Source of the DNA: Halomicronema hongdechloris C2206 | GTDB lineage: Bacteria > Cyanobacteriota > Cyanobacteriia > Phormidesmidales > Phormidesmidaceae | Length of the DNA stretch: 32,000 nucleotides | Reading direction: 5' to 3' | Assembly (NCBI RefSeq): GCF_002075285.3 | Contig: NZ_CP021983.2 | Coordinates: forward strand, 5,370,001-5,402,000 | Shown: positions 3,358 through 29,629 of the stretch, one piece after another | How positions within the stretch are numbered: the stretch's first letter is position 1 | Layout of the letters: each line of letters opens with the position of its first letter | The notes under the pieces: model-generated | Database searches by the model: none | The model's input: only the letters and a program-made list of their open reading frames with translations | Told to the model about the DNA's origin: nothing | Made by a program: the position numbers and the translations under genes

Positions 3358-4656
3358 ATGAGTGGACTTGCCCCCACCGTCATCGCCGACATCCAGCATT
3401 ATCGACAGCAGGCCCGCTCTCTGCTGTTGTACTATGCCGTCTGGGAAACTCCCCCTGGCCAGGCATTTCTGCAACTCCTCGATGCCCTCTACGCCAGCGA
3501 CAGTGATAGTTGCCTCCAAGCCTACGGCAACTGGTTTGCTGCCCTGGCCAAACCAGGCGAGAGCTGGTGCAGTCATCTACTGCAGCGCATTCTAGAGGCC
3601 GATAATCCCTTCAGCCACTGGAGTCAGCAGACAGACTTAGCCCATCTCCCCACTCCCTTGGTACAAGCTGCCCGGCACGATCTGCAGCGGCTGCAGAGCC
3701 TATATGGGTTTCCGGAACAGACTCTAGCCCACTGGGTCCAAACCCTGTGTCAATTACCCGAGCCCCCTGTGGTTTGGCAACTGCCAGAGCCAGCTCCATC
3801 CCTGAAACTCTTTCACCTGACCAATTGGAGCGACGGCCTCGACGAACTGGTTGCCCACTACCGTCACCACGGCACTGGGCTATTTGCCCGCTACCGGGCC
3901 CTGCGCTGGCAGAAGGGGCAGCTGCTAGGCATCGCCCATGCTGATCCCATTCGCCTAGACCAACTGGCCGCCTACGACTATCCCCGCCAGATCCTGATTC
4001 GCAATACCGAATTCTTGTTGGCTGGCCATCGCGCCCTTCATGTGCTGCTCTATGGCAGTCGGGGCAGTGGCAAGTCTTCCCTGGTCAAAGCCCTATTGAA
4101 CCAGTATCATCCCCAGGGGCTGCGACTGGTGGAAGTCGCCAAGGCTGACCTACAGGATCTGCCCCAGATCGTGGAGCAGCTGCGGCTAGTCCCCTTGAAA
4201 TTTATCCTCTTCGTCGATGATCTCTCCTTCGAAGAGGACGACGACGCCTTCAAAGCGTTGAAAGTAGTCTTAGAAGGCAGCCTCACCGCCCGCCCCGACA
4301 ACGTGGTGGTCTATGCTACCTCCAACCGCCGTCACTTGGTGCGGGAATTCTTCAGCGAACGGCCCCGTCCTCGCGATCAGGACGAAGTGCAGGCCTGGGA
4401 CACCCTGCAGGAGAAACTCTCCTTCAGCGATCGCTTCGGCCTCACCCTCACCTTCGAAGCCGCCGACCAACCCACCTATCTCACCATCGTCAAGCACTTG
4501 GCCAGCCAGGCGGGGATTCAGTTAGCCGACGCCGACCTGGAACGTCAGGCGTTGCAATGGGCCACTCGCCACAATGGTCGCTCCGGCCGTACCGCCGGCC
4601 AGTTTATTGACTTTCTGCAGGCGGACTTAGCGCTAGGAGAGGGAGACAGTGATTAG
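3358..4656 (+). CDS. DUF815-family P-loop (AAA-like) ATPase
   Basis: 432-aa ORF with Walker A LLYGSRGSGKSSLVKA, Walker B ILFVDDLSFEE and sensor VVYATSNRRHL. This order and spacing are characteristic of DUF815 (PF05673) proteins. Confidence 0.8.
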   Translation: MSGLAPTVIADIQHYRQQARSLLLYYAVWETPPGQAFLQLLDALYASDSDSCLQAYGNWFAALAKPGESWCSHLLQRILEADNPFSHWSQQTDLAHLPTPLVQAARHDLQRLQSLYGFPEQTLAHWVQTLCQLPEPPVVWQLPEPAPSLKLFHLTNWSDGLDELVAHYRHHGTGLFARYRALRWQKGQLLGIAHADPIRLDQLAAYDYPRQILIRNTEFLLAGHRALHVLLYGSRGSGKSSLVKALLNQYHPQGLRLVEVAKADLQDLPQIVEQLRLVPLKFILFVDDLSFEEDDDAFKALKVVLEGSLTARPDNVVVYATSNRRHLVREFFSERPRPRDQDEVQAWDTLQEKLSFSDRFGLTLTFEAADQPTYLTIVKHLASQAGIQLADADLERQALQWATRHNGRSGRTAGQFIDFLQADLALGEGDSD

Positions 4657-6278: not shown

Positions 6279-9032
6279 ATGACGCAAAGTCCTGGAAATC
6301 AACCTAGCTGGTGGGATCCTGTCCAAAAACTCTTGGACAAAAAGTATGTTGATTGGGGGGTTCCCAGTGTTTTTATCGCCATTGCAGTTAGTTATGCTAA
6401 GCCTCCTAATCCAGACTGGCGATCATTTGGTATTTTTCTGGGAATCGCAGCAGGAGCTTGGCTATTACTTCGGATTGGCAGCAGGCTACTGCCCTACTTC
6501 GATAAGCTACTGGACTGGATATTACGCAAGCTAGAGGAAGGCTGTGCTGAACTCACTGATCGCACTGAAGGCATTTATTACAGATACTTGAAAGCCGATT
6601 GCGAAGACTACGAAGGGCGAGGGTTCAATGCAGGAGGACTCAGCCTAGAAGCCGTCTATGTCCCCCTGAAGCTTTCGGAAAACGCGGCCAGAAATGTCTC
6701 TCAAGACATTGTCAGACAGCAGCGACGGGCATTTGACCCACAAGCCTTTCAAAGAATTGGCAAATTGATTTCGACCATTGGCAGCCCGAAAAGCCGTTGC
6801 TGACATCTGGTGATTTTGGGCGCTCCGGGTTCAGGCAAATCGACCTTGATGCGTCACATCACATTAATGTACGCCATTCGCAAACGGCGGCGACTACATC
6901 CACGAGTCCCAAAACTGCATCCGGTCTTATTGCGCCTACGAGAAATCTACGAACTCATTCTGGAACATCCTGAGCCATCCTTAGCTGACCTGACGAAGCA
7001 GTTCTTTCAAGGAAAATCTGGTGACCTGAAAGCCAAACTAGAGGAGAGTCCTCGATGGTTTGAGAAGCGGCTGCGCCGCGGTCGTTGCCTGGTAATGTTA
7101 GACGGCTTAGATGAAATTGCCGATGATAGCCAACGGCAAGCAGTCAGTCGGTGGGTAGATCGGCAACTCAAAGACTACTACGAGACGCCATTCATTCTGA
7201 CATCTCGACCGGATGCGTATAAAAAAGCGCCTCTCTATGAAAATGCCATTGAGCTTGAGGTACAGCCGTTCTCGACCAAGGAACGCAATACCTTTATCCA
7301 CAATTGGTGCTTCAACTGGCGCAAGAACACAACCGAGGGCAGAGTCAACACCGAGAAAGCTAGACAGCGGGCAGAAGGCTTGATCTATCAAATTGAGTCG
7401 TCTCCAACATTGCGACTCATGGCCACCAACCCATTGCTGTTGTCTTTGATGGCCCGCACCCATGTCGACAAGGGCAAACTGGCCAGCAAGCGAGTGGATC
7501 TCTACGGCGAGGTTTGCCAAGTGCTGCTAGAAGGACGACAACGCTACCGCAAGACAACGGAAGCGGTATTATCCGCCAGTCGTAAGCAGGGAATTTTGCA
7601 GCGCTTGGCCCTGGAGATGACCAAGGCCGGAATGCTCCAGTTCACCTTAGACAACAAACCCGCGAAAGAAGGGACGTATACTCAAGCAAAGGCCCTACTC
7701 CAAGCAGAACTCAGCCGCGTTCCTAGGCATGCGCCGACGCCAGAGGAATTTATCGGTAAAGATGAAGTTGGCGTGCGGGAACTGCTGAGCGATCGCCAGC
7801 AAGAAGGACTGTACGAATTTGCCCACCGCACCTTTCAGGAATATTTAACCGCCGCCGAACTGAAACGAACCGGACGGATCGACTGCTTGCTAAACGCCTT
7901 TGCGGTGGGTGAGCAAGCGTTGGCATGGTGGCGCGAAACCATTCGCTTTTATGCGGCTCAGGCAGATGCCACAGCCATTATTGAAGCGGCTTTGAAGGAA
8001 GAGCATCGTTCAGTTGCGGCTCTGGCCTTAGCCTATGAATGCCTGAACGATACGGAAAACCTCGATCCGGCAACTCAGCAAAAACTAGAACAAGAACTGG
8101 ACCGGGGGTTACATTCCAGCGATTTAGAAGAATTTCGTCTGGCCGCCAGAGTTCTGCTGTCGGTGCGCTTGAACCGCCTGAATACCGACATGCGAGAGCC
8201 GCAGACGATAACCGATGAAATCCCAGAGATAGAAGATTCCGAATACGTTACCTGGGCTGAATATCAGTTTGTGCAGGATCAAATATTGTTGCGAGAGATG
8301 GCAGAGTCCGAACGTTCCATGCCTTCGCCCAATCGCAAAGCCATCCCCGATGCTAAGCAGCCGGTGACAGGCATTGATATTTGGGATGCCTACCAATTTT
8401 GTGGTTGGCTCAGCCAAATGACTCAGAAGCAGTTTGGAGAAACAGCGCAGTATCGACCGCAGCAACCATTCGACGGCAGGATTCAGTTAGTTAGGTTTCG
8501 CGTGCCTGAACAGTATCAACCACTGGCCTACTATCTATCGACCGGACAATGGCAAAGGGCCGATCAGGAAACCATTAAGGTGATGCTTAAAGTCGCCGGC
8601 AAGAAAGATCAGGGCTATTTAAGCGTTGATGACATTAAACACTTCCCAGGTGTAGACTTGCGGCTGATCGATTTTTTATGGGTCACTTATAGCAATGGAC
8701 ACTTTGGCTTTAGTGTGCAAGAGCAAATCTGGCTAGAGGTAGGTGGTAAGCTAGATTTTGGCAGAGACAAACAAGCCGCCAGCGCGGCCTTCAAAAAAAT
8801 GAGCGATCGCAACGGCTGGCGGGTAAACGGAAACTATATCTCCTACAGCCAAGTAACTTTCGACACTTCTTCTGCCCCGGTGGGACACCTCCCTGGTGTG
8901 GTGGTTGTTTGCGGTGATGTCTCGGGGGGGGGTGGGGGCTGTGTGGATTGTGCTGGGGTTTTGGGGTCGTTGGACGATACGTGCTGGGGCATGGTATTTC
9001 TCTTCTCTCGCATCCAGACTTGTAAAGTCTAA
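6279..9032 (+). pseudogene. 2TM - NACHT NTPase - short FGE/SUMF1-like segment - GUN4-like domain protein, interrupted by one in-frame TGA (6801..6803)
   Basis: ORFs 6279..6803 and 6810..9032 are in the same frame, separated only by TGA-CAT-CTG. The N-terminus has two TM helices (VPSVFIAIAVSYA, FGIFLGIAAGAWLLLRIG). NACHT motifs are Walker A ILGAPGSGKSTL, Walker B CLVMLDGLDEI and ILTSRP. YVTWAEYQF...PVTGIDIWDAYQFCGWLS resembles an abbreviated FGE-sulfatase segment. The C-terminus (about 8520..8900) reads QWQRADQET...FPGVDLRLIDFLWVTYSNGHFGFSVQEQIW...GWRVNG...APVGHLP, which is the GUN4-domain signature. Confidence 0.8.
8924..8966 (+). repeat. G-run cluster (G9-T-G5 ... G4-TTTT-G4) inside the 3' end of the NACHT-GUN4 gene
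   Basis: Read directly: G9 at 8924..8932, G5 at 8934..8938, G4 at 8955..8958 and G4 at 8963..8966. It encodes SGGGGGC. Confidence 0.9.
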
Positions 9033-9238
9033 TTCATAGGCACTTCAGACATTCCTAAACTTTTATTGCCAGGTGCCGATCTGCGAGAACATGAGGGTTC
9101 CAGCGTTTTCTTACCTGGCACCGAGGTTGTTATCAATTTCTACGTACTGTTGTCAAATTGCATACCTGAAATCTCCGGATTCAGGGCATTGACCAAACCA
9201 CCTACAAACGAATTGCGTTGATTAACCCGACAGACCCT

Positions 9239-9265
9239 GTAGGGGCAAACGGCCGTTTGCCCTAC
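9239..9265. repeat. REP-like GC-rich palindrome (GTAGGGGCAAACGG/CCGTTTGCCCTAC), upstream copy
   Basis: 27-nt near-perfect palindrome with one C missing relative to the intragenic copy. It is preceded by the 16-mer GTTGATTAACCCGACA (9217..9232), which recurs at 9707..9722 inside the RAYT gene. Confidence 0.85.
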
Positions 9266-9323
9266 CACAGACAGACGATCCACAAACAGATAACCCACGA
9301 TTGGGCATCCACACCGAAAAATC

Positions 9324-9349
9324 GTAGGGGCGTACGCCGTACGCCCTCC
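9324..9349. repeat. Second REP-like palindrome variant (GTAGGGGCGTACG-C-CGTACGCCCTCC)
   Basis: Stem GGGCGTACG/CGTACGCCC is read directly. It shares the TCGTAGGGGC prefix with the 9748 copy. Confidence 0.75.
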
Positions 9350-9449
9350 AAACATTACGTCTATGACATTTGCCAGCATCTTTCCTAGCCACAAGATCCG
9401 CAACGGATCGATCTGGGAATCCTAACCTTATTCCCATGCGTCAATTCCC

Positions 9450-10040
9450 GTGCCATACAACCCCGACAAACACCACCGTCGGTCTATTCGTCTCAAGGGA
9501 TACAACTATTCATCCGCTGGGGCTTATTTCATCACCCTCTGCACCTTTCAGCGTCAGTGCCTATTTGGACGAATCATCGACGGCGCAATGCAATTGAATG
9601 AATGCGGCCAGATCATCGCCGAAGAATGGCTGCAATCCAGCAGCATCCGGCAGGAAATTGATTTCGATCAATGGGTGATTATGCCCAACCACCTGCATGG
9701 CATTGTGTTGATTAACCCGACACATCTGGTAGGGGTGCACGGCCGGATCGTAGGGGCAAACGGCCGTTTGCCCCTACAGCGAACGGGGCATTCGCAGCGC
9801 GTTGTTCCCCCGATGAAACCCCGTTCGCTGTCATCATTCATTGCCGGATTTAAATCTGCCACGACCAAACGCATCAATACTGCCCGCAATTCACCAAGAA
9901 CCCCAGTCTGGCAGCGCAATTATTATGACCACATCATCCGCAGTGAAGAGTCCCTCCAAAGAATTCAGCAATATATCCAAAACAATCCTGCTACCTGGCA
10001 AAATGACCAGCTAAATCCGTCTAATCCATCAAAGTTTTAG
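9450..10040 (+). CDS. REP-associated tyrosine transposase (RAYT; IS200/IS605-type Y1 HUH transposase)
   Basis: 196-aa ORF with a GTG start. It has the HUH motif MPNHLHGIV, the catalytic-Tyr region WQRNYYDHIIR and a typical N-terminus RRSIRLKGYNYSSAGAYFITLCT. An extra Gly/Arg-rich segment (THLVGVHGRIVGANGRLPLQRTGHS) sits between the two motifs. Confidence 0.85.
   Translation: MPYNPDKHHRRSIRLKGYNYSSAGAYFITLCTFQRQCLFGRIIDGAMQLNECGQIIAEEWLQSSSIRQEIDFDQWVIMPNHLHGIVLINPTHLVGVHGRIVGANGRLPLQRTGHSQRVVPPMKPRSLSSFIAGFKSATTKRINTARNSPRTPVWQRNYYDHIIRSEESLQRIQQYIQNNPATWQNDQLNPSNPSKF
9750..9777. repeat. Perfect 28-nt palindrome GTAGGGGCAAACGGCCGTTTGCCCCTAC embedded in-frame in the RAYT coding sequence
   Basis: Read directly; the two 14-nt arms are exact reverse complements. 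A half-copy, GTAGGGGTGCACGGCC, lies at 9729..9744. Confidence 0.9.
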
Positions 10041-10831
10041 CTGCCAAGATGCTTAATTGACAACTCCATCATGTCTATCAGATGCTGAGCCAGCACAGTC
10101 CGATGACAGCATTCCGGGTTTGCTTCCATACACACCAAAACACTCGGTTCAGACTTCAGTAACGACATTGCCCTGTGCAAGTCATCCCAGCGGTCCGACA
10201 GACCACACCGATATTCCTTAAACAGAGCCACATAGCTGTCCGTTGAGGACAAATTTGCTCTCGCTGAACCCGGAATCCCTAACCCCGGCAAATGCTGGTA
10301 ATCAATATCCAGCGCATTGCATAACCGCTTGAGAGTGCTCTTATGAAAACCATAGCGACGGGAAATCGGATTGTAGCGAACGTCAATTAACCTGCGAATA
10401 CCCGATCGCATCAGCAGATTCAAAAACTCATCAACGGTTTTGCCTTCGTAGCCAGCGGTATAAATCGCCTGATCAGCCACAGGGCGCTGTTCTCGGCGTT
10501 GCCTCGGCAAATCACTGTTCACCGTAAACCAGGGATAGTTGGCATAGACCGTATCGATCAAGGCTGAGCCAGAAAAATTGCCGTACTGCTGGGTGACAGC
10601 CGTAATGTCTTGAGCGATCGTCTTGGGTAGCTTAACTTCCTGCTCTTTGCCCAGAGTCGTCAACTGCCAAAGCCTATCGGCAGCCTTCTCCATAAAGCCA
10701 TTGCGAACCAACGTATCCGTTTCACGGTTCAGGGTGAATGAGTAGGGTCCATAACGATAGGGGATGAACTGATAGAAAGTCTTGCCGCCATGAGATTGCG
10801 TTTCCTGCCCCAGCAGAAATGCCCACTTCAT
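10037..10831 (-). CDS. DUF488-domain protein with an N-terminal wHTH/Panacea(DUF4065)-like module
   Basis: The C-terminal half (IYTAGYEGKTVDEFLNLLMRSGIRRLIDVRYNPISRR...VLVCMEANPECCHRTVLAQHL) is the DUF488 signature. The N-terminal part (LQLMKWAFLLGQE...FYQFIPYRYGPYSFTL) resembles the KLQKLLY...GP motif of DUF4065-type domains, which is a tentative reading. ATG 10831 is used because ORF-track codons 10832..10879 start at a TTG and are encoded by the IS end. Confidence 0.65.
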   Translation of the reverse strand: MKWAFLLGQETQSHGGKTFYQFIPYRYGPYSFTLNRETDTLVRNGFMEKAADRLWQLTTLGKEQEVKLPKTIAQDITAVTQQYGNFSGSALIDTVYANYPWFTVNSDLPRQRREQRPVADQAIYTAGYEGKTVDEFLNLLMRSGIRRLIDVRYNPISRRYGFHKSTLKRLCNALDIDYQHLPGLGIPGSARANLSSTDSYVALFKEYRCGLSDRWDDLHRAMSLLKSEPSVLVCMEANPECCHRTVLAQHLIDMMELSIKHLGS

Positions 10832-10842
10832 CAACTGTAGGG

Positions 10843-12322
10843 GAATGGCACTGACATAAGAGAGCAGAAAAGGCTTCAAGCGCTTGATCTGTAAGAATCG
10901 AAGTGTTGAAGCCCATAACTATGCCTCTATGATGCCGAATCGTGCCGAAGTCCTCAAGGAGAAATACCAGAACAGTATCGCTCTCCCGTTTGCTGAGGTG
11001 CTGCCGGAAGCTGAGATTCAGTCAGTGCTGAACGAGCAAGGAATCCGGTATCGCCGAGTGTTATACACGCCCATGGTGGTGCTCTGGAGTTGGCTCTCCC
11101 AAGTGCTCGATGTCGATGGTAGTCTCAGTCATGCCGTCAAGCGGGTGACGACCTGGATGAGCTTGTCGGGATTGACGGTGCCGTCAGCCGATACCGGGGG
11201 CTACAGTAAAGCGCGAAAACGTCTTCCCGAGTCAATTTTCCCGCCTTTGTTACAGCGGGTAGCGAGGGCCTTGCGACAGAAGGTGCCGCCCGCTCAACGG
11301 TGGTGTGGTCGTCCGGTCAAGGCCTTTGATGCGACGACCGTCTTGATGAGTGATACCGCAGCCAATCAAGCGGCGTATCCCCAACACAGCAATCAAAAAG
11401 CCGGCTGTGGCTTTCCCATTCTCAAGCTGCAGGTGTGGTTTTGTGTGACGACCGGCGCGGTCCTGGAGGTGGCGATGGCCCCCTTTCGGGTGAGTGAATG
11501 GCGCTTGGCCCGCCAACTCTATCGGAAGCTGCGCCCGGAGGATGTGGTGGTGGCCGATTCAGCCTATGGCACCTATGTGGATCTGGCCTGGGTCGCCTTG
11601 ACGGGAGCCGATGCCGTCTTTCGCAAGCATCATCAGCGCCGCTGTGATTTCAGGCGAGGCAAAAAATTAGGCATTGGCGACCACATCGTCCGTTGGCAGC
11701 GCCCGAAACAATACCCCAAGGCCCTCTCATCTGGGGAGCTTGGGGCCTTGCCCGAGTCGATTGAGGTGCGGGAAGTCTATCTCTCGATTCAGGTGCCTGG
11801 GTTTCGCCCCACCAACGTAGTGGTGGTGACCACGCTGAGAGACCCTAAACGCTATCCCAAAGCCAAATTGGCCGAACTCTATCACCGCCGTTGGCAGGCT
11901 AGCGAAGTCAATCTCAGGCATCTCAAGACCACCTTAGCCATGGAGATGATTGCGGCCAAAACGCCGGCCATGGTAACCAAAAGTATTTGGCTGCATTTGG
12001 TGAGCTACAATCTGCTGCGGACGCTGATGTGGGATGCCACAGCCCACTCTGAGGTCGGCGCTTTACGGGTCTCCCTGCAGGGCACTCGGCAACAATTCAA
12101 TCACTTCCGAGCCGAGTTCCTGCATCTGGCTCCATCCAAGCGAGGGCAGGGGTACCAAGCCTTGTTAAGCGCTGTGCGAGAGCTGATAATTCCCCCTCGA
12201 CCGAACCGCTCAGAACCTCGAGTCGTCAAACGTCGTCCTAAACCTTTTCCAAGAATGCAAGAACCCCGCTCGGTCCTGAAAGCTAAGCTGGTCGCTTGAT
12301 AGGGCTTACGTCAGTGCCATTC
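10843..12322 (+). mobile_element. IS4-family-like insertion sequence (~1.48 kb) with 18-bp terminal inverted repeats
   Basis: IRL is GAATGGCACTGACATAAG (10843..10860). IRR is CTTACGTCAGTGCCATTC (12305..12322), whose reverse complement is GAATGGCACTGACGTAAG, giving a 17/18 match. The repeats bracket a single DDE transposase ORF. No direct target duplication is visible beyond GG. Confidence 0.8.
10929..12299 (+). CDS. IS4-family DDE transposase
   Basis: ORF 10884..12299 has a TTG start, and the first ATG is 10929. The DDE context is VKAFDATTVLMSD, VVVADSAYGTY and YHRRWQASEVNLRHLK (a Y-x2-R...E-x6-K-like signature). Confidence 0.85.
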   Translation: MMPNRAEVLKEKYQNSIALPFAEVLPEAEIQSVLNEQGIRYRRVLYTPMVVLWSWLSQVLDVDGSLSHAVKRVTTWMSLSGLTVPSADTGGYSKARKRLPESIFPPLLQRVARALRQKVPPAQRWCGRPVKAFDATTVLMSDTAANQAAYPQHSNQKAGCGFPILKLQVWFCVTTGAVLEVAMAPFRVSEWRLARQLYRKLRPEDVVVADSAYGTYVDLAWVALTGADAVFRKHHQRRCDFRRGKKLGIGDHIVRWQRPKQYPKALSSGELGALPESIEVREVYLSIQVPGFRPTNVVVVTTLRDPKRYPKAKLAELYHRRWQASEVNLRHLKTTLAMEMIAAKTPAMVTKSIWLHLVSYNLLRTLMWDATAHSEVGALRVSLQGTRQQFNHFRAEFLHLAPSKRGQGYQALLSAVRELIIPPRPNRSEPRVVKRRPKPFPRMQEPRSVLKAKLVA

Positions 12323-12578: not shown

Positions 12579-12818
12579 ATGCAAATCACCATTCAAATCC
12601 CAGATGACCTCCAACAAAAGCTCACCCAGCGAGCCAGCCAGCTCAACATTCCCTTAGAAACCCTGATTTTGGAGTCCCTCGCCGACCTCGTTGAGCCATC
12701 AGATCCTGACGACACTCCCAAAGCAGTCGTGCTTGAGAGTCTGCGAGTGTCCCTAGAGGATGTCAAAGCAGGCAGAGTTTACCCCATCGAAGACCTCTGG
12801 AACGGCATTGATGAGTGA
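12579..12818 (+). CDS. Ribbon-helix-helix type II antitoxin (RelB/ParD-like)
   Basis: 79-aa ORF. MQITIQIPDDLQQKLTQRASQLNIPLETLILESL is an RHH-like N-terminus. Its stop overlaps the toxin start (ATGAGTGA, 12811..12818). Confidence 0.7.
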   Translation: MQITIQIPDDLQQKLTQRASQLNIPLETLILESLADLVEPSDPDDTPKAVVLESLRVSLEDVKAGRVYPIEDLWNGIDE

Positions 12819-13155
12819 ACCGCCTGCCGTCCAAATTCAGTTTTCCGCTGAATTCAAAACTCAGCTTCGCAGTCTGGCAAAGCGCTATCGTCAGATTCGT
12901 AGCGATCTCCAATCCCTAATCACTCGCCTGCAAGCCGGAGAGTTTCTAGGTGATCAGATACCGGGCACTGGATTTACAGTCTTCAAAGTCCGCGTCAAAA
13001 ACAGCGACATCCGCAAAGGCAAGCGAGTGGGCTACCGGGTGATTTATCAGGTGATTGAGCCAACCTCAGTGCTGCTGCTACTGATTTACGCCAAATCAGA
13101 TCGAACGGATGTGACAGCAGCAGAAATCCAGGCCGTCATCAAAGAATATCAGTGA
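12811..13155 (+). CDS. RelE/ParE-family toxin
   Basis: The internal ATG 12811 of ORF 12760..13155 is used. FKVRVKNSDIRKGKRVGYRVIYQVIEPTSVLLLLIYAKSDRTDVTAAEI is the KGKSGGYRVIY...IY-KS signature of RelE/HigB-like toxins. Confidence 0.8.
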   Translation: MSEPPAVQIQFSAEFKTQLRSLAKRYRQIRSDLQSLITRLQAGEFLGDQIPGTGFTVFKVRVKNSDIRKGKRVGYRVIYQVIEPTSVLLLLIYAKSDRTDVTAAEIQAVIKEYQ

Positions 13156-14336: not shown

Positions 14337-14530
14337 TTTTTATTGGATTCAATTCATAATACAGCTAACGGCAATCAGCCCTGATTCAGTCCAGAGCAAG
14401 CTGGTTCTCTAGTACTTAATAAGGAGTCACTTGCGATCGCACCCTTTGCCCTTTGCTGGGCGATTGCCAACCAGATCGTTTTTTCAGCCATCGTTTCTAT
14501 CACTGCTTTGCGCCGACGAGGAGGTGCCCC

Positions 14531-15235
14531 ATGATCACGATTCGCCCAGCCAATCAGCGTGGCGCCGCCAACTTTGGCTGGCTCGATAGCCGCCACACCT
14601 TTTCCTTTGGCAACTACTACGATCCCAATCACATGGGATTTGCCAGCCTGCGGGTAATCAACGAAGACAAGATCCAGCCATCCCAGGGATTTGGCACCCA
14701 TGGCCATCGCGATATGGAGATCATTACCTACGTACTCGAGGGCGCCCTAGCCCACAAAGACAGCATTGGTAACGGATCTGCCATTACCCCCGGAGATGTG
14801 CAGCGCATGTCTGCCGGTACTGGCATTCGCCACAGTGAGTTTAATCACTCTGCCACCGACCCGGTGCATCTGCTGCAGATCTGGATTCTGCCGGAGCAAA
14901 CTGGTCTGGAGCCCAGCTACGAACAGATTCGTATCCCCACGGAAGATAAACGTGGTCAGCTACGGTTGATCGGCTCTCGCCAGGGCCGGGAGGGCTCGAT
15001 TACCATTCACCAAGATGTGGATCTCTACGCGGCAGTACTCAGTCAAGCCGATGCCGTCGAGTATGAGTTGTCCCCCAATCGGGCCGCCTGGCTGCAGGTG
15101 GCTCGCGGAGCGGTTCAGCTCAATGGTGAGTCGCTCACCGCCGGAGACGGGGCCGCCATCGTTGATGAAACGTCCCTAGTCATTGCTAGCCAAGCCGAGG
15201 ATACCGAAGTGGTGTTGTTCGATATGGCAGTTTGA
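14531..15235 (+). CDS. Pirin-family protein (YhhW-like bicupin)
   Basis: ATG 14531 is preceded by GAGGAGG. The sequence has [32 protein letters not shown] and the metal-site motif [19 protein letters not shown]. Confidence 0.9.
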
Positions 15236-15442
15236 GGCAAGGGGGCTATCTGGGCCCCCTGCAAACCACCGTTGGCCATTGTTTCGTGGATGTCAATTAA
15301 ATCCATACTGACGCCCCCTACTGTGATGGCAGCCATAGCCAACTCTGAGTCGGCCGTCATCAAATCAAGAGTTAGGAGCTGCAATCTCCTAGCAATTGTC
15401 AGTTCCTAGTGCCTGCCGAAAACCCAGTAAAGACCTATTGCC

Positions 15443-16030
15443 ATGACTACTCCAAAACTGCTGGCCTTTGCCGGCAGCCTCCGCCGGGACTCATTCAACA
15501 AGAAGCTGGTCAAAATTGCCGCCGCGGGGGCCGAAGCTGCCGGCGCCAAGGTCACCTATGTTGATCTGAAAGACTATCCCATGCCCATCTACGACCAGGA
15601 TTGGTTCGATCAGCATGGGTTTCCCGAGAGTGTGCTGCAGCTCAAGGGCCTGATGAAGGACCACCACGGCTTCTTGATTGCCTCGCCGGAGTACAACAGC
15701 TCTATTTCTGGGGCATTGAAGAACATGATCGACTGGACCTCTCGCCCTGAGGAAGGAGAGGCGCCTTTGTCTCTGACTTGCTTCAAGGGCAAAACCGCCG
15801 CTATCATGGCCACCTCTCCGGGGGGATTAGGCGGCCTGCGCGGTCTTAACCATGTGCGCTCGATTCTGGAGAACATCGGGGTGTTGGTGATTCCCGACCA
15901 AAAGGCCATCCCAGGAGCCTATCAGGCCTTTGATGAGGCCGGCAATCTGGTAGATGAGAAAACCCATGATGCGATCGCATCTATTGCCGCCAAACTGGCC
16001 GACGTCACTGCCAAGTTGCAGACTGCTTAA
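15443..16030 (+). CDS. NAD(P)H-dependent FMN reductase (flavodoxin-like fold)
   Basis: 195-aa ORF with LLAFAGSLRRDSFNKKL and LIASPEYNSSISGALKNMIDWTSR, which are the PF03358-type motifs. Confidence 0.85.
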   Translation: MTTPKLLAFAGSLRRDSFNKKLVKIAAAGAEAAGAKVTYVDLKDYPMPIYDQDWFDQHGFPESVLQLKGLMKDHHGFLIASPEYNSSISGALKNMIDWTSRPEEGEAPLSLTCFKGKTAAIMATSPGGLGGLRGLNHVRSILENIGVLVIPDQKAIPGAYQAFDEAGNLVDEKTHDAIASIAAKLADVTAKLQTA

Positions 16031-16217
16031 GAGGCCCGCTGCGCTAACCAATCCGTAAAGCCTGCCACCACTTGCTGCACGGCCGCAAACCCAGCAGGCA
16101 CCTGCCGAGCCAAGGCCAGGGCTCGATGGCGAAGCGGCGATAGGCATCTAACTCCAACAGCAGGGATACTATACGTGATGCCGAAGATCCTGATCACATA
16201 TCAGTTTGGGAAAAACC

Positions 16218-17198
16218 TCATGATGCAGCGGATTCTGCATCGTCTTGATGGTGAGAGACATGCTCCAAAATCCTTTCGCCTAAGGCTTTATGCCTGGGGT
16301 GGTCAACCAGTCCGGTATCCAGCAGCACGACCCCAAACAGGATCGCCCATCCCTTGGCCTTGAGCAGCATGGCTTCCGAAATCTCGCCATAGGCAGCCAG
16401 AGCTTGAAGGCGTGCATTGTGGTCAGCAAAGAGCATCCAGATAGACGCTAAATCCGTTGCCACATCGCCAGCTGTGATGTCGCCCCAGTCGATAATGCCG
16501 GTAATGACTCCGTTCTCAACCAACACATTGCGGGGATGCAAATCCCCATGCAGCCACCAGGATTGAAAATCAGCAGGTGCGTGCAAAGCAGCCTGCCAGA
16601 TATGCCTGATCTTTTCGGTAATGAGGTTGGTCTTGGCCTCCAGTCGCTGCATGCGCTCTTCTGTTGACTCTGCCCGCTGGCTCAGTGGCACTCCCCTCAC
16701 CGGATTATGGGGCGCATTAGCTGGAGCCGGCTGATGCAGTGCTTTGAGAAATGAGCCAAACCGTTGCGCTTGGTTTGCATCGGGTGGCGCTTGATCTGCC
16801 GCTCGACCAGGCAACCACGGCAGTATGCTCCATCGCCAGGGATAGCCGTGGCCAGGCAACCCGATTCTCAGTGGAATTGGAACCGCAATCGGCAGTTGAT
16901 TCGCCAACACCGGCAGCCAGGTTTGTTCATGTTCGATGAGCGGAGCGGCAACGTTTCGGCGAGGCAGTCTGACACAAAACTGGTCACCCAGACGAAACAT
17001 CGCATTATCCCACCCAACATCTACAGGTTGAACTGGCAGATGCGCTAAATCAGGATGCTGGTCTGCTAGCAACCTGTGGACGAGGGTTGCATCAATTTCC
17101 AGTTCTGATGCTGGTGTCCCTGCCAAGGCTAACGTTTGATGTGCTTGCATACCTGCCTTACCACTCGGTGTTCCTGGGTTAGCTCTCGTCAATTCCAT
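16218..17198 (-). CDS. Aminoglycoside phosphotransferase (APH) family kinase
   Basis: The catalytic loop is WLHGDLHPRNVLVENGVITGIIDWGDITAGD (Brenner HxDxxxxN plus DWG). The N-lobe has GWDNAMFRLGDQFCVRLPRR. ATG is at 17198; 17201 is GTG. Confidence 0.85.
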   Translation of the reverse strand: MELTRANPGTPSGKAGMQAHQTLALAGTPASELEIDATLVHRLLADQHPDLAHLPVQPVDVGWDNAMFRLGDQFCVRLPRRNVAAPLIEHEQTWLPVLANQLPIAVPIPLRIGLPGHGYPWRWSILPWLPGRAADQAPPDANQAQRFGSFLKALHQPAPANAPHNPVRGVPLSQRAESTEERMQRLEAKTNLITEKIRHIWQAALHAPADFQSWWLHGDLHPRNVLVENGVITGIIDWGDITAGDVATDLASIWMLFADHNARLQALAAYGEISEAMLLKAKGWAILFGVVLLDTGLVDHPRHKALGERILEHVSHHQDDAESAAS

Positions 17199-17391
17199 CA
17201 CGTTTGTGGTGTGCTGTCATGCCGCAGGTGAGCGACGTAATACGGAGAGCAACCAGAATGGTTTCTGAGGTTGGTCGAGGATAGAGACTGAGATTAGACA
17301 ACAGCGCAATCAGAAGAATCGAGAGGCCGACCCCTATCCACCCCAAAGGCTTCACATCCGTTGGCGTAGGCTGAAGCTGATTCATAATCAC
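17179..17391 (-). CDS. Hypothetical small single-TM protein
   Basis: 70-aa ORF filling the gap between the AAC(3)-like and APH genes. It has one hydrophobic helix (LGWIGVGLSILLIALL) and no recognisable family. Confidence 0.25.
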   Translation of the reverse strand: MIMNQLQPTPTDVKPLGWIGVGLSILLIALLSNLSLYPRPTSETILVALRITSLTCGMTAHHKRDGIDES

Positions 17392-17405: not shown

Positions 17406-17437
17406 TGCATGTCTTTAAAGCTGCATGTCTTTAAAGC
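17406..17437. repeat. Perfect 16-bp tandem duplication (TGCATGTCTTTAAAGC x2) spanning the AAC(3)-like stop codon
   Basis: Read directly: 17406..17421 equals 17422..17437. The gene's TAA (17431..17433) lies in the second copy. Confidence 0.9.
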
Positions 17438-17949
17438 TCTGATGCCTTGGAGTGACCCGTCGCTGATTGCTCAAATGGCTCGCCAACAGCTACGGCAATA
17501 TCAAAATGTAAGACATCTTCCCGAACGCCCAGTTTTGAGTACAAACTGATAGCCGGTTCATCGCCGTGGTCAGCCTGTACGAAAATGAGATAGGCTCCCC
17601 GGTCGGCAGCAAGAGGCTTCAGTGCCTCGATGAGTTTCGTGGCAATACCCTGGCGTCGGTATTCTACGAGGACTGCCAAATCATAGATATAAATTTCGCT
17701 GCGTTCCTGTTCAAACTTTTGCAGCTCGTAGGCGGCTAGACCGCCAACCACTTTTCCATCTTTTAAGGCGACCAGCCCGATAAAGTGGCGTTGGCTGAGT
17801 AGCTTTTGCAAGTAATCATTACTGGGCTGAGCCTGGCAATAGGTGTCCGCTTCATCAAAAGCATCGCCAAAGACAGTGAGCAATGCTCTCATTAAATCGA
17901 TATCGGTTTCAGCCAGTTGCTGAATGGCTATGTAGTCTGTTGGTTTCAT
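17431..17949 (-). CDS. AAC(3)-I-like aminoglycoside N-acetyltransferase (GNAT)
   Basis: KFEQERSEIYIYDLAVLVEYRRQGIATKLIEALKPLAADRGAYLIFVQADHGDEPAISLYSKLGVREDVLHFDI is nearly colinear with AAC(3)-Ia as I remember it (KFEQPRSEIYIYDLAV..RRQGIAT...[34 protein letters not shown]). Confidence 0.8.
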   Translation of the reverse strand: MKPTDYIAIQQLAETDIDLMRALLTVFGDAFDEADTYCQAQPSNDYLQKLLSQRHFIGLVALKDGKVVGGLAAYELQKFEQERSEIYIYDLAVLVEYRRQGIATKLIEALKPLAADRGAYLIFVQADHGDEPAISLYSKLGVREDVLHFDIAVAVGEPFEQSATGHSKASEL

Positions 17950-17967
17950 TGGAAAAGTTGTCCACCC

Positions 17968-18438
17968 CTAACTGGCAAGTTCGCACGGTTGGCGGCGCTT
18001 GGTGAACTTCGCTTCTCCGGCATACTCCCCCTCCGCCACAACCTCCGTCAGTAGCCAATCCAGGTGTTGGTAAAAACCATACGCTCTGAGCGATGGATCA
18101 TTTCCTGTCAGGAGCCAAATTTCGTCGAGTCCCTGAGACCATAGCCAGGTCTCGGCGGCTTGCATGAGGGCTCGTCCCGCGCCTTGACCTTCAAACTTGG
18201 GAAGCACAAAGATACCGAAAATCGTGGCTTCAGTGGCGTTGGCGATCGCAAACCCCACCGATTGTCCCGCCAGTTCCGCGATCCAAGCACAGCAGTCTGT
18301 CGCCAGCGTTGCGGCAATGGACTCCGGCGTGATGCCCAGCTCAGCAATCTCTTCGCGCGATTGGTGGTTTTCGGTAACACTGGTGCGGATATCAAACATC
18401 ATTTCAATATCGGTTGATTGAGCGACTCGAACTAACAT
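17968..18438 (-). CDS. GNAT-family N-acetyltransferase
   Basis: 156-aa ORF. The acetyl-CoA motif A is FVLPKFEGQGAGRALMQAAETW. Confidence 0.8.
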   Translation of the reverse strand: MLVRVAQSTDIEMMFDIRTSVTENHQSREEIAELGITPESIAATLATDCCAWIAELAGQSVGFAIANATEATIFGIFVLPKFEGQGAGRALMQAAETWLWSQGLDEIWLLTGNDPSLRAYGFYQHLDWLLTEVVAEGEYAGEAKFTKRRQPCELAS

Positions 18439-18500
18439 GATTTATCTCCATTCAAGAACGTATTTTTTGGGTGCCGTGTGCGACTCACAATCCTTAGTCA

Positions 18501-18989
18501 TCAAACTTCTAGCGCGCAAATCATATTGAACGATTCGCTGCCGGTGCGGTTGAGAATTTCGCTGCCGGAGACCGGCACAAAGCCGACTCGCGAATATAGA
18601 CGCACCGCAGGGTTATCACCGCGCACACTCAGACTCACGGCGGGGAAGGCTCCCTTGGCAGCGGCTAACAGTTGGGTGAGCAGACGCGTGCCAACGCCCT
18701 GCCCGCGATAGTCGGGGGCAACACCGATCGACAACTCAGGAATGTCATCGCGGATATAGCCAAATCCTTTGTCACCCCCTGACCAAAGCCGTAACCAGGC
18801 AGCACCAATCGGGGTGGCGGCTCGCCATGCCCCATAGCCCACATCTCCCGGACGCCCCCACCCCGTGGTATAGCGAGCCAGCAGGGGGTGTTGTAGAGCC
18901 TCCAAAGAGGATTCGTGAGCGGCATACCGCAGCATTTCCCACACTATCGGCTCATCTCCAGCGGTCAAAGGACGCATCGTGTAATCCAT
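18501..18989 (-). CDS. GNAT-family N-acetyltransferase
   Basis: 162-aa ORF. Motif A is VAPDYRGQGVGTRLLTQLLAAA, followed by NPAVRLYSRVGF. Confidence 0.8.
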   Translation of the reverse strand: MDYTMRPLTAGDEPIVWEMLRYAAHESSLEALQHPLLARYTTGWGRPGDVGYGAWRAATPIGAAWLRLWSGGDKGFGYIRDDIPELSIGVAPDYRGQGVGTRLLTQLLAAAKGAFPAVSLSVRGDNPAVRLYSRVGFVPVSGSEILNRTGSESFNMICALEV

Positions 18990-19990: not shown

Positions 19991-20380
19991 TTAACTCTCT
20001 ATCCTGACAATCGTCGCGTCAATTTCTACTAGCTGGTTTTCATGGCCCAGCAGAAAAACTCCTAGCAGCGTTGCAGGCGGCACAGCGTTATCAAACCACT
20101 CTGCAACAGCCTGCCACGCATTGGTAAGATTTGCATGGTCACCAACCACGTATATTTTTAGTTGCCGAATGTCGCGATCGCTAAACCCATACAAATTCAT
20201 CAAGGTGCGCAGGTTTTTTAGGCACTGACTGGCCTGGGCGTGGGGACTGCCAATGCCGACTAAATTGCCCTCAATACCATGAGGTACCTGCCCGGCAACA
20301 AATAGCTGATTGCCAACCGGCTGAGCGTATTGGTAACCAGGGGTGACAGCTAGTCCTGCCTGGATTTCAAGAGTATTCAT
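19991..20380 (-). CDS. RidA/YjgF/L-PSP family protein
   Basis: The internal ATG 20380 (MNTLEIQ...) is used. The sequence has YAQPVGNQLFVAGQVP...QASQCLKNLRTLM...LVEIDATIV. Confidence 0.8.
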   Translation of the reverse strand: MNTLEIQAGLAVTPGYQYAQPVGNQLFVAGQVPHGIEGNLVGIGSPHAQASQCLKNLRTLMNLYGFSDRDIRQLKIYVVGDHANLTNAWQAVAEWFDNAVPPATLLGVFLLGHENQLVEIDATIVRIES

Positions 20381-20399
20381 AAAAACCTTCTTCGAGATA

Positions 20400-20870
20400 A
20401 ATAGGGAGAACTTGAACAAGTCTTTCCAGTCGATTGAGTCATAGCCAAGCAACAATTGAATCGCCTGCTCAGGGATGGCAACGCCAGTACGAGAGCTGCA
20501 GAAGTCAGGTGTTTTGAGCAGCCTAAAAACAAATCGAGAAGATCCGGAGAACCGAGAAGATATTAAGTCTAACCGCCCCCAGGTTTGGAGGCCAGGGAAC
20601 TAAAATCGGATTCAACAGCGTAAGTCCTGCTAAACCCAACGTTGCCTTGAGCGGCAGTCGAATGGGTTGTTCGCTGCCATAGGATGCGATCGTCGTCTCA
20701 AAGAGTTCAATAGCGCCCTCGCGACTTTTCTGGTCTTCCCCAAAGGTGAGAAACCGGGTGGACTCGCGATCGGTCATAAACTGGATGAACGGCTCCCGAT
20801 CCTCTGGGACGAACCGACGGATTTGCAGGCAAGCAGTTTCTATCAGTGGCTGAGCAGGGAATAGAGACAT
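20400..20870 (-). pseudogene. Decayed RimJ/RimL-type GNAT acetyltransferase
   Basis: The N-terminal half is intact (LIETACLQIRRFVPEDREPFIQFMTDRESTRFLTFGE...). The frame then degenerates into non-GNAT sequence and stops at 20523. A motif-A-like stretch (RTGVAIPEQAIQLLLGYDSIDW) reappears in another frame at about 20424..20492 and runs into the RidA upstream region. The frameshift reading is tentative. Confidence 0.45.
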
Positions 20871-20886
20871 CAGTAACTCAATGACA

Positions 20887-21444
20887 TCAATCGTTCGACT
20901 GAGCAGTAGAGGTTGGATAGATCATCGCGACTCGTCGGTCGGGACGCAGTCCACGCTGCTGTTCGGCTTGTTCCAGCTCAACATGGCGTGGCGTCAATTT
21001 AGCCGAATCGATGATGATACAAAATCCTCGACGCTGATAGAAGGGCGCGTTCCAAGGGACATCGCGGAACGTCCTTAAGGTGACCGCTCTGTAACCAGCA
21101 GCCGTGGCCCATTCGCAAACTTGACGCAGCAGTGCAGAACCCACGCCCCGCTGCCCATGCTCTGGCACCACCGAGAGTTCATCCAAGTGGGCGTACTCAT
21201 CGAAGTCGAGCACCAGCGCGAATCCGACCGGTTCACCGATCGCCGTCTCCGCAACCCACAACCTCCCGGCTTGGCAAGCTAGCGCTAAATCCGCAACTGA
21301 GTTGACGTGGTTTAAGCTGTCTACCGTCAGCCCGGTGGCTTCTAATTGGTCGAGAAATTGCTGTGCGGCTCGCCGCTCGATCGCAGGCAAGTCGGCAACA
21401 TCAACCCGGTTAGCTTTCCGAATCCGATAAGCAGATGGCGTCAT
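20887..21444 (-). CDS. GNAT-family N-acetyltransferase
   Basis: ATG is at 21444; 21471 is TTG. Motif A is VVPEHGQRGVGSALLRQVCEWA, and the C-terminal part is WNAPFYQRRGF. Confidence 0.8.
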   Translation of the reverse strand: MTPSAYRIRKANRVDVADLPAIERRAAQQFLDQLEATGLTVDSLNHVNSVADLALACQAGRLWVAETAIGEPVGFALVLDFDEYAHLDELSVVPEHGQRGVGSALLRQVCEWATAAGYRAVTLRTFRDVPWNAPFYQRRGFCIIIDSAKLTPRHVELEQAEQQRGLRPDRRVAMIYPTSTAQSND

Positions 21445-21488
21445 TGATGGCTGCTGATGATATGTGAGCAACTTGAAGTTAGGAAAAC

Positions 21489-25000: not shown

Positions 25001-25604
25001 GAAGCTGGGCATTTTGGTCGCCACTGCCGACTGGCACCCTAACGGACAGATTTTAGCCACCGGGCAACAGGATGGGCTCATCTGCTTGTGGGAGGTCAGT
25101 TCGGGAGCCTGCTTGCGGTCCCTTACAGGGCATATAAACTCGGTGCTTTCAGTGGCTTTCAGTCCTGACGGGAAAGTCTTAGCGAGTGTTGCTCACGACC
25201 AGACTACCAAATTGTGGGATGTCGAAACGGGAAAATGTCTGCATACGTTCGGCGGTCATTCAGCATGGGTCGTGGCGGTGTCCTGGCATCCGAACGGACC
25301 TCTATTAGCCACCTGCTCCCAAGATCGCACAGTGCGGCTCTGGGATGTGTACAACCGGGACTGTCGCCTGGTATTGGAAGGCCACACGAACCGAGTCAAA
25401 GCCGTACGCTGGGGGCCAGAGGGTGAGTGGTTAGCGACCTGCAGCCTCGATGAAACGATACGGTTCTGGAATTCTGAGACGGGAGAGTGCTTCAAAACCT
25501 TGAGGGCCAAACGCCTCTACGAAGGCATGAAGATTACCGAAGTCACCGGATTGACTGAAGCCCAAAAGGCCAACCTGCGATCGCTAGGAGCGACTGACCC
25601 TTAG
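22095..25604 (+). CDS. STAND NTPase: HTH-like N-terminus - NB-ARC ATPase - 14 WD40 repeats
   Basis: 1169-aa ORF with P-loop [12 protein letters not shown], Walker [19 protein letters not shown] and [10 protein letters not shown] (NB-ARC GxP). A pentapeptide-like linker ([32 protein letters not shown]) follows. I counted 14 repeats of the type FSPDG-x-LAS-x-S-x-D-x-T-V-K/R-LW. Confidence 0.9.
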
Positions 25605-29215: not shown

Positions 29216-29629
29216 CTAGGGGAGTAATCTGAAACTCTCGCAGTGGCTGGGTCGAAAGATTCGGAAGTCTCGTTGGTCAATGGTCAAGATGGTTGTGATG
29301 GCTAATCGTTCGGCCATTGCCATAATGGTGGAATCGACAAAGTCAACTTTGCTGTCGAGATACTGCTCTACGATATTGGCGGCTCTGGCGATGTCCGGGT
29401 CGGTGGATGCGGTAAGGACAAAGCGACTGGCAGGGATACCTTTCAAAAAGGCGACGACGGTTGGTATGCCTACGTCACGGCCTACCAGATAGGCAACTTC
29501 TACGAGCACGACTTGGGGCAGCAAAATTTGAGGAAATTGTAGGTAAACCGCTCTTACCTCAACGTGTCTGGGGTCTGCTTTGTTGACCAGGGCAACAACA
29601 AAGCCACTATCCGCTAAGACTGCTTCCAT
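29216..29629 (-). CDS. vapC: PIN-domain toxin VapC (apparently intact)
   Basis: 137-aa ORF with MEAVLADSGFVVAL (the first PIN Asp), VLVEVAYL, DFVDSTIMAMAERL and ILTIDQRDF. Confidence 0.85.
   Translation of the reverse strand: MEAVLADSGFVVALVNKADPRHVEVRAVYLQFPQILLPQVVLVEVAYLVGRDVGIPTVVAFLKGIPASRFVLTASTDPDIARAANIVEQYLDSKVDFVDSTIMAMAERLAITTILTIDQRDFRIFRPSHCESFRLLP

Follow-up and report, generated by a model that had tools for sequence, protein, structure and literature searches.

The 32,000-nucleotide stretch of the Halomicronema hongdechloris C2206 genome analysed here (contig NZ_CP021983.2, positions 5,370,001 to 5,402,000; called the window below, with positions counted from its first letter) carries at 6279-9032 on the + strand a gene for a NACHT NTPase with a C-terminal GUN4-like module. 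We consider it probable that this gene is a nonsense-interrupted copy of a widespread family of NLR-like switches, that intact members of the family act as membrane-anchored STAND switches and that the last 45 codons of the gene do not belong to GUN4. The intact form is a single-gene cyanobacterial STAND (bacterial NLR-like) protein of ~900-940 residues, built of a probable membrane hairpin, a NACHT with helical and winged-helix domains, a small piece related to the FGE-sulfatase (FGS) domain and a C-terminally truncated GUN4 paralogue.

An initial annotation, made from the letters alone, had described one long frame at this position. The region is indeed a single reading frame of 918 codons, but it is interrupted by an in-frame TGA at 6801-6803 (+), five codons 5' of the Walker A glycine of the P-loop, and this stop had gone unflagged. 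The closest intact locus (P0003) reads AGC CGC TGC CGA CAT CTG GTA where the window reads AGC CGT TGC TGA CAT CTG GTG, an arginine is also found at the stop position in a 91%-identical metagenomic fragment (P0007), and ten aligned homologues have Arg, His or Lys there. Since intact relatives carry CGA/Arg, the TGA is explained by a single C-to-T change of an arginine codon. The databases accordingly hold two separate genes, a 174-residue hypothetical protein and a “NACHT/GUN4” protein of 727 or 740 residues. The 5' fragment (6279-6803, +; 174 codons; GenBank XM38_051130) covers the membrane hairpin and the pre-NACHT region, is conserved in homologues and ends at the premature stop. The 3' fragment is a 740-codon open reading frame (ORF) starting from GTG (6810-9032, +; RefSeq WP_225889409.1), for which GenBank sets the start 13 codons later, past the P-loop; the 727-residue product (ASC74139.1) is 100% identical to the window translation. 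Apart from the TGA the frame is clean, with no second stop and no frameshift. When it is compared pairwise with the closest intact locus, the ratio of nonsynonymous to synonymous substitution rates (dN/dS) amounts to 0.15 overall, and to 0.076 if only the NACHT region is taken. The low dN/dS and the otherwise undamaged frame point to a recent inactivation, or else to a base-calling error at the TGA. With its hairpin split off from the NTPase by the CGA-to-TGA change, the copy has most likely lost its activity, and the NACHT-GUN4 gene of C2206 is probably dead or crippled.

The gene might still function in C2206, either through low-level read-through of the TGA or as a split two-protein system, in which a 174-residue membrane piece would work with a 740-residue NACHT-GUN4 piece restarting at GTG 6810; we hold this to be unlikely. 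The downstream 740 codons are intact and under strong purifying selection in the pairwise comparison, the GTG lies only 7 nt past the stop, and UGA followed by C, the context found here, is reportedly a leaky stop in E. coli. Restart at the GTG, however, would cost the protein its pre-NACHT strands and the beginning of its P-loop strand, both conserved in the homologues compared, and none of the intact proteins among the listed relatives is divided at this point. Moreover, the low dN/dS reflects a history shared with intact relatives and not present selection.

The domain architecture was determined by a Pfam search with the joined translation (917 residues) in which the stop was replaced. NACHT (PF05729) was matched above its cutoff at residues 177-343 with an E-value of 3.5e-13, corresponding to an NTPase core at 6807-7307 (+). 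The P-loop NTPase motifs read in the initial annotation were borne out by 69 homologues, across which the columns of Walker A (GAPGSGKST, 6819-6845), Walker B (LVMLDGLDE, 7089-7115) and TSRP are invariant or nearly so, residues G184, G186, K187, T189, D275, G276, D278, E279, S309 and R310 being invariant. AlphaFold2 was run on an intact, 76%-identical homologue and on the window's own residues 640-917. The homologue model, with a predicted local distance difference test (pLDDT) score of 84.6 and a predicted template modelling score of 0.74, consists of helices 23-40 and 47-93, then the NACHT core, followed by helical and winged-helix domains. In a fold search of the PDB with this model, NLRC4, NLRP3 and NOD2 filled ranks 1-20 (best E-value 7e-11, all ≤ 2e-9). 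The NLR-like helical and winged-helix region assigned from the model and the fold search occupies 7308-8225 (+) of the window.

Two N-terminal transmembrane helices had also been proposed. The second of them (residues 48-68; 6420-6482, +) is clearly of transmembrane strength, with a Kyte-Doolittle value of 1.7 here and up to 2.4 in relatives, and begins the long helix that leads to the NACHT. The short first helix (residues 24-40; 6348-6398, +), which corresponds to the modelled helix 23-40 of the homologue, is marginal yet conserved (about 1.0 here, 1.0-1.7 in relatives). The helical hairpin is modelled at a pLDDT of about 80 and, as read from the sequence, Lys and Arg residues border it on either side. 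A membrane hairpin of two helices, its two ends facing the cytoplasm, is a likely arrangement.

Between the winged-helix region and GUN4 lies a small α/β piece (8226-8504, +) that resembles the first third of the FGS domain, as found with Pfam, and is constant in the NACHT clade. The FGE/SUMF1-like segment noted earlier is below threshold in the window protein (E-value 0.067; 13.3 bits against a cutoff of 23.3; residues 669-713, profile positions 65-110), whereas in relatives the match reaches the cutoff (24-30 bits), always at profile positions of about 35-122 of 255. A full FGE-sulfatase domain of ~250 residues above the Pfam cutoff was not found in the window protein, and the fold search with the model of its C-terminus returned no FGE structure. 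A profile of 26 family members gave only weak matches in the PDB (E-values 0.03-1.6), seven of nine of which we take, from their names, to be FGE-fold proteins (ToxD, PvdO, PorK, OvsA). In relatives that lack GUN4 the same partial match is followed by about 200 residues without a family assignment, and the window's similarity to one such relative stops right after the FGS piece. The FGS piece is a constant small domain of the NACHT clade, and it is the C-terminal module after it that varies.

The GUN4 domain itself is well defined. Pfam GUN4 (PF05419) was matched at residues 744-874 with an E-value of 1.5e-35, the match ending at profile position 125 of 141. All 14 fold matches with E-values ≤ 0.001 of the window C-terminus model (pLDDT 84.2) were GUN4 structures (best E-value 7e-9), and the model superposes on the Arabidopsis and Chlamydomonas GUN4 cores with TM-scores of 0.69-0.71 and root-mean-square deviations of 2.3-3.3 Å. 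The C-terminal GUN4 of the initial annotation is confirmed in this respect, but the residues past APVGHLP lie outside the GUN4 fold. The GUN4-paralogue core, comprising the “cupped hand” helices down to GHLP, spans 8508-8894 (+), with the GHLP codons at 8883-8894.

The pocket was examined by mapping an HMMER alignment to Synechocystis GUN4 on the palm residues listed by Verdecia et al. (PMC1084334). The side of the “greasy palm” formed by helices α2-α6 is largely retained (F105W, L116M, V135I, F138, L143, I146, W150, F160, V162, W167, F174, L177M), but the side formed by helices α7/α8 is absent, and so is the LxNxLR motif, to which Asn211 and Arg214 belong. All alignments to solved GUN4 structures, including 1Y6I and 1Z3X, stop at GHLP or GHLPLL (Synechocystis 205-210); the window continues as GHLP-GVVVVC (GVVVVCGDVSGGGGG), in a region that is hypervariable in the family. 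Where α7/α8 would be, the model shows coil of low confidence, followed by a single short helix (pLDDT about 70) that is encoded by the DNA element described below. Furthermore, Ser125 and Gln126 of GUN4 are Lys and Asp in the window. In GUN4, Asn211 is required for bilin binding and substitutions of Arg214 abolish porphyrin binding (PMC1084334, PMC10156173). Ser125 and Gln126 are important for the binding of Mg-porphyrin, and the palm residues Val218, Ala219, Tyr223 and Trp228 come from helices α7/α8. For paralogues without these residues a loss of bilin binding, or the binding of other metabolites, has been proposed (PMC1084334, PMC10156173).

These results weaken the tetrapyrrole trigger of the initial annotation, by which a porphyrin, a chlorophyll precursor, a bilin or a phage mimic in the GUN4 pocket would turn the NACHT on. 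The fold is confirmed, most palm residues are kept or conservatively replaced, and the same prediction was made by Kibby et al. and Kaur et al. Nevertheless, we regard it as rather unlikely, given that the likeness to solved GUN4 ends at GHLP(LL), that LxNxLR and the Ser125/Gln126 pair are lost, that the palm residues of α7/α8 are replaced by a junction readable in any frame, and that published proposals have such paralogues losing bilin binding or turning to other metabolites. The modelled fold supports the binding of something hydrophobic in the palm and not tetrapyrrole binding as in GUN4.

The last 45 codons of the gene, to judge by the DNA of the window and its relatives, are a junction plus a conserved DNA element and no part of the GUN4 fold. 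The G/T-rich junction (8895-8997, +) has a G+T content of 84% (G 50% and T 33% over 8895-8999), contains a run of nine G at 8924-8932 and is fully open in two of the three frames. Across relatives the distance from GHLP to the block that follows is 19-148 nt with all three length classes modulo 3 present, and the junction has 38% G and 31% T against a background of 22% and 27%, respectively. The resulting stretch of 10-110 residues after GHLP cannot be aligned even between 76-79%-identical proteins. At 8998-9121 (no strand assigned) follows a conserved DNA element of GUN4-paralogue genes across cyanobacteria, a mark of nearly all GUN4-paralogue modules, with a 5' block (TTCTCTTCTCTCGCATCCAGACTTGTAAAGTCTAA) and a 3' block (CTTACCTGGCAC). 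The 5' block stops translation in all three frames (TAA 9023-9025, TAA 9030-9032 and TAG 9037-9039). The proteins of the family seem to end in three “conserved tails”, LFSR[IV]xTCK[LV], SSLASRLVxCNI and LLS[HR]xDL, which all come from one DNA sequence, read in its three frames (window version TTCTCTTCTCTCGCATCCAGACTTGTAAAGTCTAATTCATAG); the closest relative has nearly the same element DNA, read in a different frame. Since the tail is read in all three frames, a conserved C-terminal Ser-Arg was dropped as a candidate equivalent of Arg214. DNA of G and T only cannot contain a stop codon and, whatever the frame, is translated into Gly, Val, Trp, Cys, Leu or Phe. In the pyrimidine block every frame gives Ser/Leu/Phe and then Arg or His. 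Because the junction is stop-free and the block reads alike in any frame, the tail tolerates frameshifts.

Scanning of reference genomes with a degenerate 21-nt pattern from the block gave at least 120 stretches. Of the 80 titled matches 79 are cyanobacterial, from many genera, and about four pattern matches without flanking conservation look like chance. Among 96 distinct ORFs ending in the block, all except one carry the Pfam GUN4 domain, which is joined to protein kinase (27), TIR (16), caspase (12) and NACHT (11), as well as to EAD1, AAA_35 and CHAT, and the three frames at the block are used by 45, 26 and 25 ORFs. In 1785 pairwise BLAST alignments over the block, similarity begins abruptly 3-8 nt before the pattern and runs to a median of 62 nt past its start. 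A structured RNA or the hairpin end of a classic insertion sequence (IS) is not supported here: RNAalifold on 54 copies of the element returned just a 3-bp stem with zero covariation, folding of the element as DNA gave no significant fold on either strand (z-scores -0.1 to -1.7), and Rfam had no family match in 8700-9600. For a phage origin, tblastn of the GUN4 module against phages was empty, and the single match of the element on a viral contig is a chance one within an unrelated gene. Localised hypermutation of the junction is not claimed either, the junction being conserved in a 95%-identical pair and very divergent, partly alignable, in 89-91% pairs, a pattern that fits weak constraint with frequent indels.

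Variants of this 3' region were seen at several loci. In several Nostocales loci a short repeat (ACGCCCTAnnGGGAAGTCAAAAG) is inserted at differing points 3' of the GUN4 block and replaces the rest of the element; it stands right after the 5' block in L031, L038 and L116 and is also present in L099 and L106. In L003 the NACHT-GUN4 homologue has a GC-richer, diverged version of the element, and two more GUN4-domain genes (505 and 171 residues; 14355-16404) without a recognisable terminal element lie 3.5 kb downstream.

At roughly 40% of the loci (about 46 of some 120, by inspection) a convergent ORF runs into the element, full length in 16 cases, with about 200-275 residues. It encodes a Y1_Tnp domain (E-value 2e-19) with an HUH motif and the tyrosine motif GHFWEKRYHS, and is closest to the REP-associated tyrosine transposases (RAYTs), at 72.5 bits against a cutoff of 80. 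The end of the Y1 protein, ..VPGIG.., is the reverse complement of the 3' block of the element (CCGATACCTGGCAC). Between the Y1 stop and the start of the pattern lie about 63-127 nt, most often about 89 nt. Because the Y1 stop has this position and the 3' block codes for the end of the Y1 protein, the 5' block represents a non-coding flank of the Y1 gene that the end of the GUN4 gene overlaps. The window keeps only a ~125-nt remnant (8998-9121), whose 3' block is the remnant coding end (VPG..) of a lost convergent RAYT-like gene; the RAYT at 9450-10040 is another protein, encoded on the opposite strand. A second conserved end was sought upstream of the Y1 gene and none was found, the conserved flank being on one side only, and this rules out a two-ended IS.

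Two genes of Stigonema ocellatum, one for EAD1-CHAT-GUN4 and one for AAA_35-GUN4, have in common the GUN4 module (83% amino-acid and 89% nucleotide identity), the block (92%) and the Y1 region (87-91%), while their N-terminal 340-400 residues are unrelated. More generally, in 21 of 58 ORF pairs with GUN4 modules at least 70% identical, the N-terminal parts have no detectable similarity. Such pairs show that the GUN4 module has recently moved or recombined from gene to gene along with its 3' flank, and close GUN4 modules on unrelated N-termini suggest a portable cassette. We tentatively propose that this cassette is defined at the DNA level and would comprise the core down to GHLP, the frame-tolerant junction, the ~45-nt three-stop block and the convergent Y1 (HUH) gene. 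The Y1 enzyme, or recombination at the block, may graft it onto kinase, TIR, caspase, CHAT, AAA_35 and NACHT genes and leave the junction behind; the window gene would be such a graft that has since lost Y1 and in which the cassette possibly replaced the rest of an FGS sensor domain. This is possible, though we would not call it probable, and that the Y1 enzyme is the mover of the GUN4 module is our inference. The FGS piece itself might be a scar of the cassette, which has no specific support, as GUN4-less relatives carry the same partial match. Among the papers searched none linked GUN4 with IS200, RAYT or transposases in the sense of a cassette, and the DNA-level anatomy of the GUN4 module is a new result that should be taken as a lead rather than a finding. 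As a separate observation, locus L009 of Aetokthonos hydrillicola carries an EAD1-GUN4 (1597-2967) and an EAD1-NACHT-GUN4 gene (8001-10736) 5 kb apart, with Tn7-like, Tn3 and resolvase genes around; both end in the conserved element, and their matching EAD1 domains suggest a partner pair.

As for the family, 528 relatives were found, and the named ones among those listed are all cyanobacterial. The listed full-length relatives mostly have 900-940 residues and the same layout, and most of the named ones are entitled “GUN4 domain-containing protein”. Some relatives have EAD1, an adaptor of conflict systems, in place of the membrane hairpin, and in others a full FGE-sulfatase domain is added after the partial GUN4. 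The swap of EAD1 for the hairpin fits an effector or adaptor position of the N-terminus, in agreement with the STAND switch of N-terminal effector and C-terminal sensor that the initial annotation had suggested. Its view that this might be an undescribed system does not hold, since the architecture has hundreds of annotated homologues and is named by Kibby et al. It is already catalogued. An NLR-like conflict switch is a reasonable interpretation, one that has been predicted in print before.

For the mode of action we envisage that the hairpin would place the intact protein in the membrane and have its two ends on the cytoplasmic side, the C-terminal module of FGS piece and GUN4 keeping the ADP-bound NACHT closed. 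A hydrophobic ligand or partner in the GUN4 palm might free the NACHT, and ATP-dependent oligomerisation could then cluster the N-terminal hairpins and damage the membrane, leading to growth arrest or abortive infection.

The genomic context is in part that of a conflict system. The accessory neighbours named in the initial annotation were recovered in the window, namely PIN/VapC of the vapBC pair, DUF4258 with an MqsA-like (YgiT) gene, the RAYT, an IS4 DDE transposase and a ParE/RelE toxin, so that a context rich in toxin-antitoxin and mobile genes is confirmed. At the eight homologue loci examined the gene stands as a single gene without a conserved partner, and PIN toxins, Uma2, Y1 transposases and transposons are frequent around it. 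The association with defence islands that was to be surveyed in homologues is nevertheless mixed, and several points speak against our preferred interpretation. Some homologues lie amid housekeeping genes (one copy among psbN/psbH, tatA and pth) and the gene is found at a syntenic position in two Nostoc genomes, which argues for vertical descent and not for a mobile defence island. No NACHT defence model is among the PADLOC matches, and NCBIfam EruA reaches 40 bits against a cutoff of 1000. Moreover, the hydrophobicity of helix 1 is only marginal, the TGA could be a sequencing error or, in its TGA-C context, be read through at a low level, and sensing, oligomerisation and membrane damage are all inferred from what is known of NLRs and bacterial NACHT proteins. 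A literature search found no experiments on the NACHT-GUN4 architecture.

The restriction of the family to cyanobacteria, the Nostoc synteny and the copies that adjoin psbN/psbH, ChpXY or adjacent Proton_antipo_M (ndhD/F-type) genes would also suit a housekeeping regulator of chlorophyll or tetrapyrrole metabolism in place of a conflict system. However, no chlorophyll-biosynthesis gene (chlH/I/D, hem, chl) was found near any of the eight homologue loci, so the chlorophyll synteny that would have spoken for such a role was not seen there. The many paralogues, with variable architectures that include the conflict-type partners EAD1, TIR and caspase, the frequent toxin-antitoxin and transposon neighbours and the dispensability of the stop-bearing window copy argue against it as well, and we give a housekeeping role very little credence.

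Alternatively, GUN4 might be the output or adaptor and the hairpin an anchor or sensor, so that GUN4 modules clustered on activation would act on Mg-chelatase or pigments and upset the flow of tetrapyrroles, with light-dependent oxidative damage as one possible result. Kibby et al. also count GUN4 among adaptor-type effectors, and the joining of the module to effector enzymes (kinase, TIR or caspase) in 55 of the 96 genes indicates a general add-on and not a NACHT-specific sensor. In the kinase-, TIR- and caspase-GUN4 proteins, however, the effector is obviously the enzyme, and the regulatory role falls to GUN4. EAD1 replaces the N-terminal hairpin and not the GUN4 module, and the porphyrin-binding residues are missing for this role just as for sensing; we consider an output function very unlikely. 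A NACHT switch with an N-terminal membrane hairpin as its output remains the interpretation that we favour for intact members.

Among the closest known systems are the bNACHT anti-phage proteins. In the 2022 preprint of Kibby et al. (10.1101/2022.07.19.500537), NACHT with a C-terminal GUN4 is a common cyanobacterial type. The window family shares with bNACHT proteins the central NACHT with helical and winged-helix domains, of the kind found in NLRC4, NLRP3 and NOD2, the variable N-terminal output position and the C-terminal sensor. It differs in having a probable two-helix membrane hairpin at the N-terminus and an FGS fragment before GUN4; no NACHT-GUN4 protein is among those reported as tested in the accessible part of the preprint, the PADLOC bNACHT models have no match here and the window copy is interrupted. 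Canonical GUN4/Ycf53, the Mg-chelatase cofactor (PDB 1Y6I, 1Z3X, 4XKB, 7E2R), has in common with the window module the core fold and most hydrophobic palm residues. Unlike it, the window module is part of a fusion with a STAND NTPase, lacks LxNxLR (Asn211, Arg214), Arg217 and helices α7/α8, and falls among the paralogues that have been proposed to have lost bilin binding. For cyanobacterial conflict systems with FGS, Kaur, Burroughs, Iyer and Aravind (eLife 2020, 2021) proposed GUN4 as a tetrapyrrole-responsive regulator. The vocabulary of those systems (NACHT/STAND, EAD1, FGS, GUN4, caspase, TIR, kinase) and their occurrence in multicellular cyanobacteria agree with ours, but GUN4 is treated there as a protein domain only. 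The 3' DNA element, its reading in three frames and the RAYT-like gene go unmentioned in the passages of their papers on GUN4, as well as in papers retrieved for both subjects together.

The GUN4-linked Y1 gene shares Y1_Tnp, the HUH motif and the catalytic tyrosine with the HUH enzymes of RAYTs and of IS200/IS605. It differs from RAYTs in scoring below the 80-bit cutoff, in an extra C-terminal extension of about 120 residues and in being tied to one protein-coding module instead of intergenic repeats. Furthermore, it has no flanking REP hairpins, and its conserved flank is one-sided and without a stable fold. The PADLOC search matched no NACHT system; its one notable match (E-value 3.7e-35) was to the GUN4-like part of PD-T4-6 (PDLC04062), the model of a Ser/Thr-kinase anti-phage protein of E. 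coli, and the other four were at 2.5e-4 or weaker. Profile positions 309-431 of 450 match the GUN4 region as strongly as Pfam GUN4 does, while the window protein has no kinase. The original PD-T4-6 paper mentions the kinase alone, and tblastn with the window GUN4 module found nothing in phages and, in plasmids, nothing outside cyanobacteria. PD-T4-6 is thus unproven as an experimental precedent for GUN4 in defence; its profile may have absorbed cyanobacterial kinase-GUN4 proteins. As the C-terminal third of PDLC04062 behaves as a GUN4 profile, PADLOC likely labels cyanobacterial kinase-GUN4 and other GUN4 proteins as PD-T4-6.

Elsewhere in the window, the segment 9229-9350, just upstream of the + strand RAYT gene (9450-10040), contains two palindromes, GC-rich and with heads of the GTAG type (ctgtaggggcaaacggccgtttgccctac and cgtaggggcgtacgccgtacgccct), which look like part of a classic REP/RAYT pair unrelated to the GUN4-linked Y1 family. 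They are followed by a DUF488 protein (10037-10879, -), whose N-terminal half of about 145 residues has no family and which lies 5 nt from the start of the IS4-type DDE transposase gene (10884-12299, +), and by the ParE/RelE-like toxin (12760-13155). A DUF815-family AAA ATPase (3358-4656, +; E-value 1.7e-94) stands directly upstream of the vapBC pair, and a second PIN-domain gene is at 29216-29629. Four GNAT acetyltransferase genes (17431-18989 and 20887-21471, -) have an APH-type phosphotransferase (16218-17201) and an L-PSP endoribonuclease-family gene (19991-20455) near them. The 1169-residue protein encoded at 22095-25604 (+) consists for its C-terminal half or more of WD40 beta-propeller repeats (best matches at residues 548-1138), and no family for its first ~540 residues was among the 25 best Pfam matches; it may be a further NTPase of the STAND type, with the repeats as its sensor.

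Taken for itself, the window gene is an ordinary and probably dead member of an NLR-like family that specialists have already listed, and it opens no new system. The C-terminal tails of the family are readings of one DNA element and not protein motifs, which affects gene annotation. The reasoning that a GUN4 domain means sensing of chlorophyll precursors should not be carried over to these fusion proteins, very common cyanobacterial sensors in which the binding residues and helices are missing. If it is true that a Y1 enzyme moves a protein-domain cassette, bacteria would have in it a mechanism for shuffling domains and so for diversifying receptors of the immune type.

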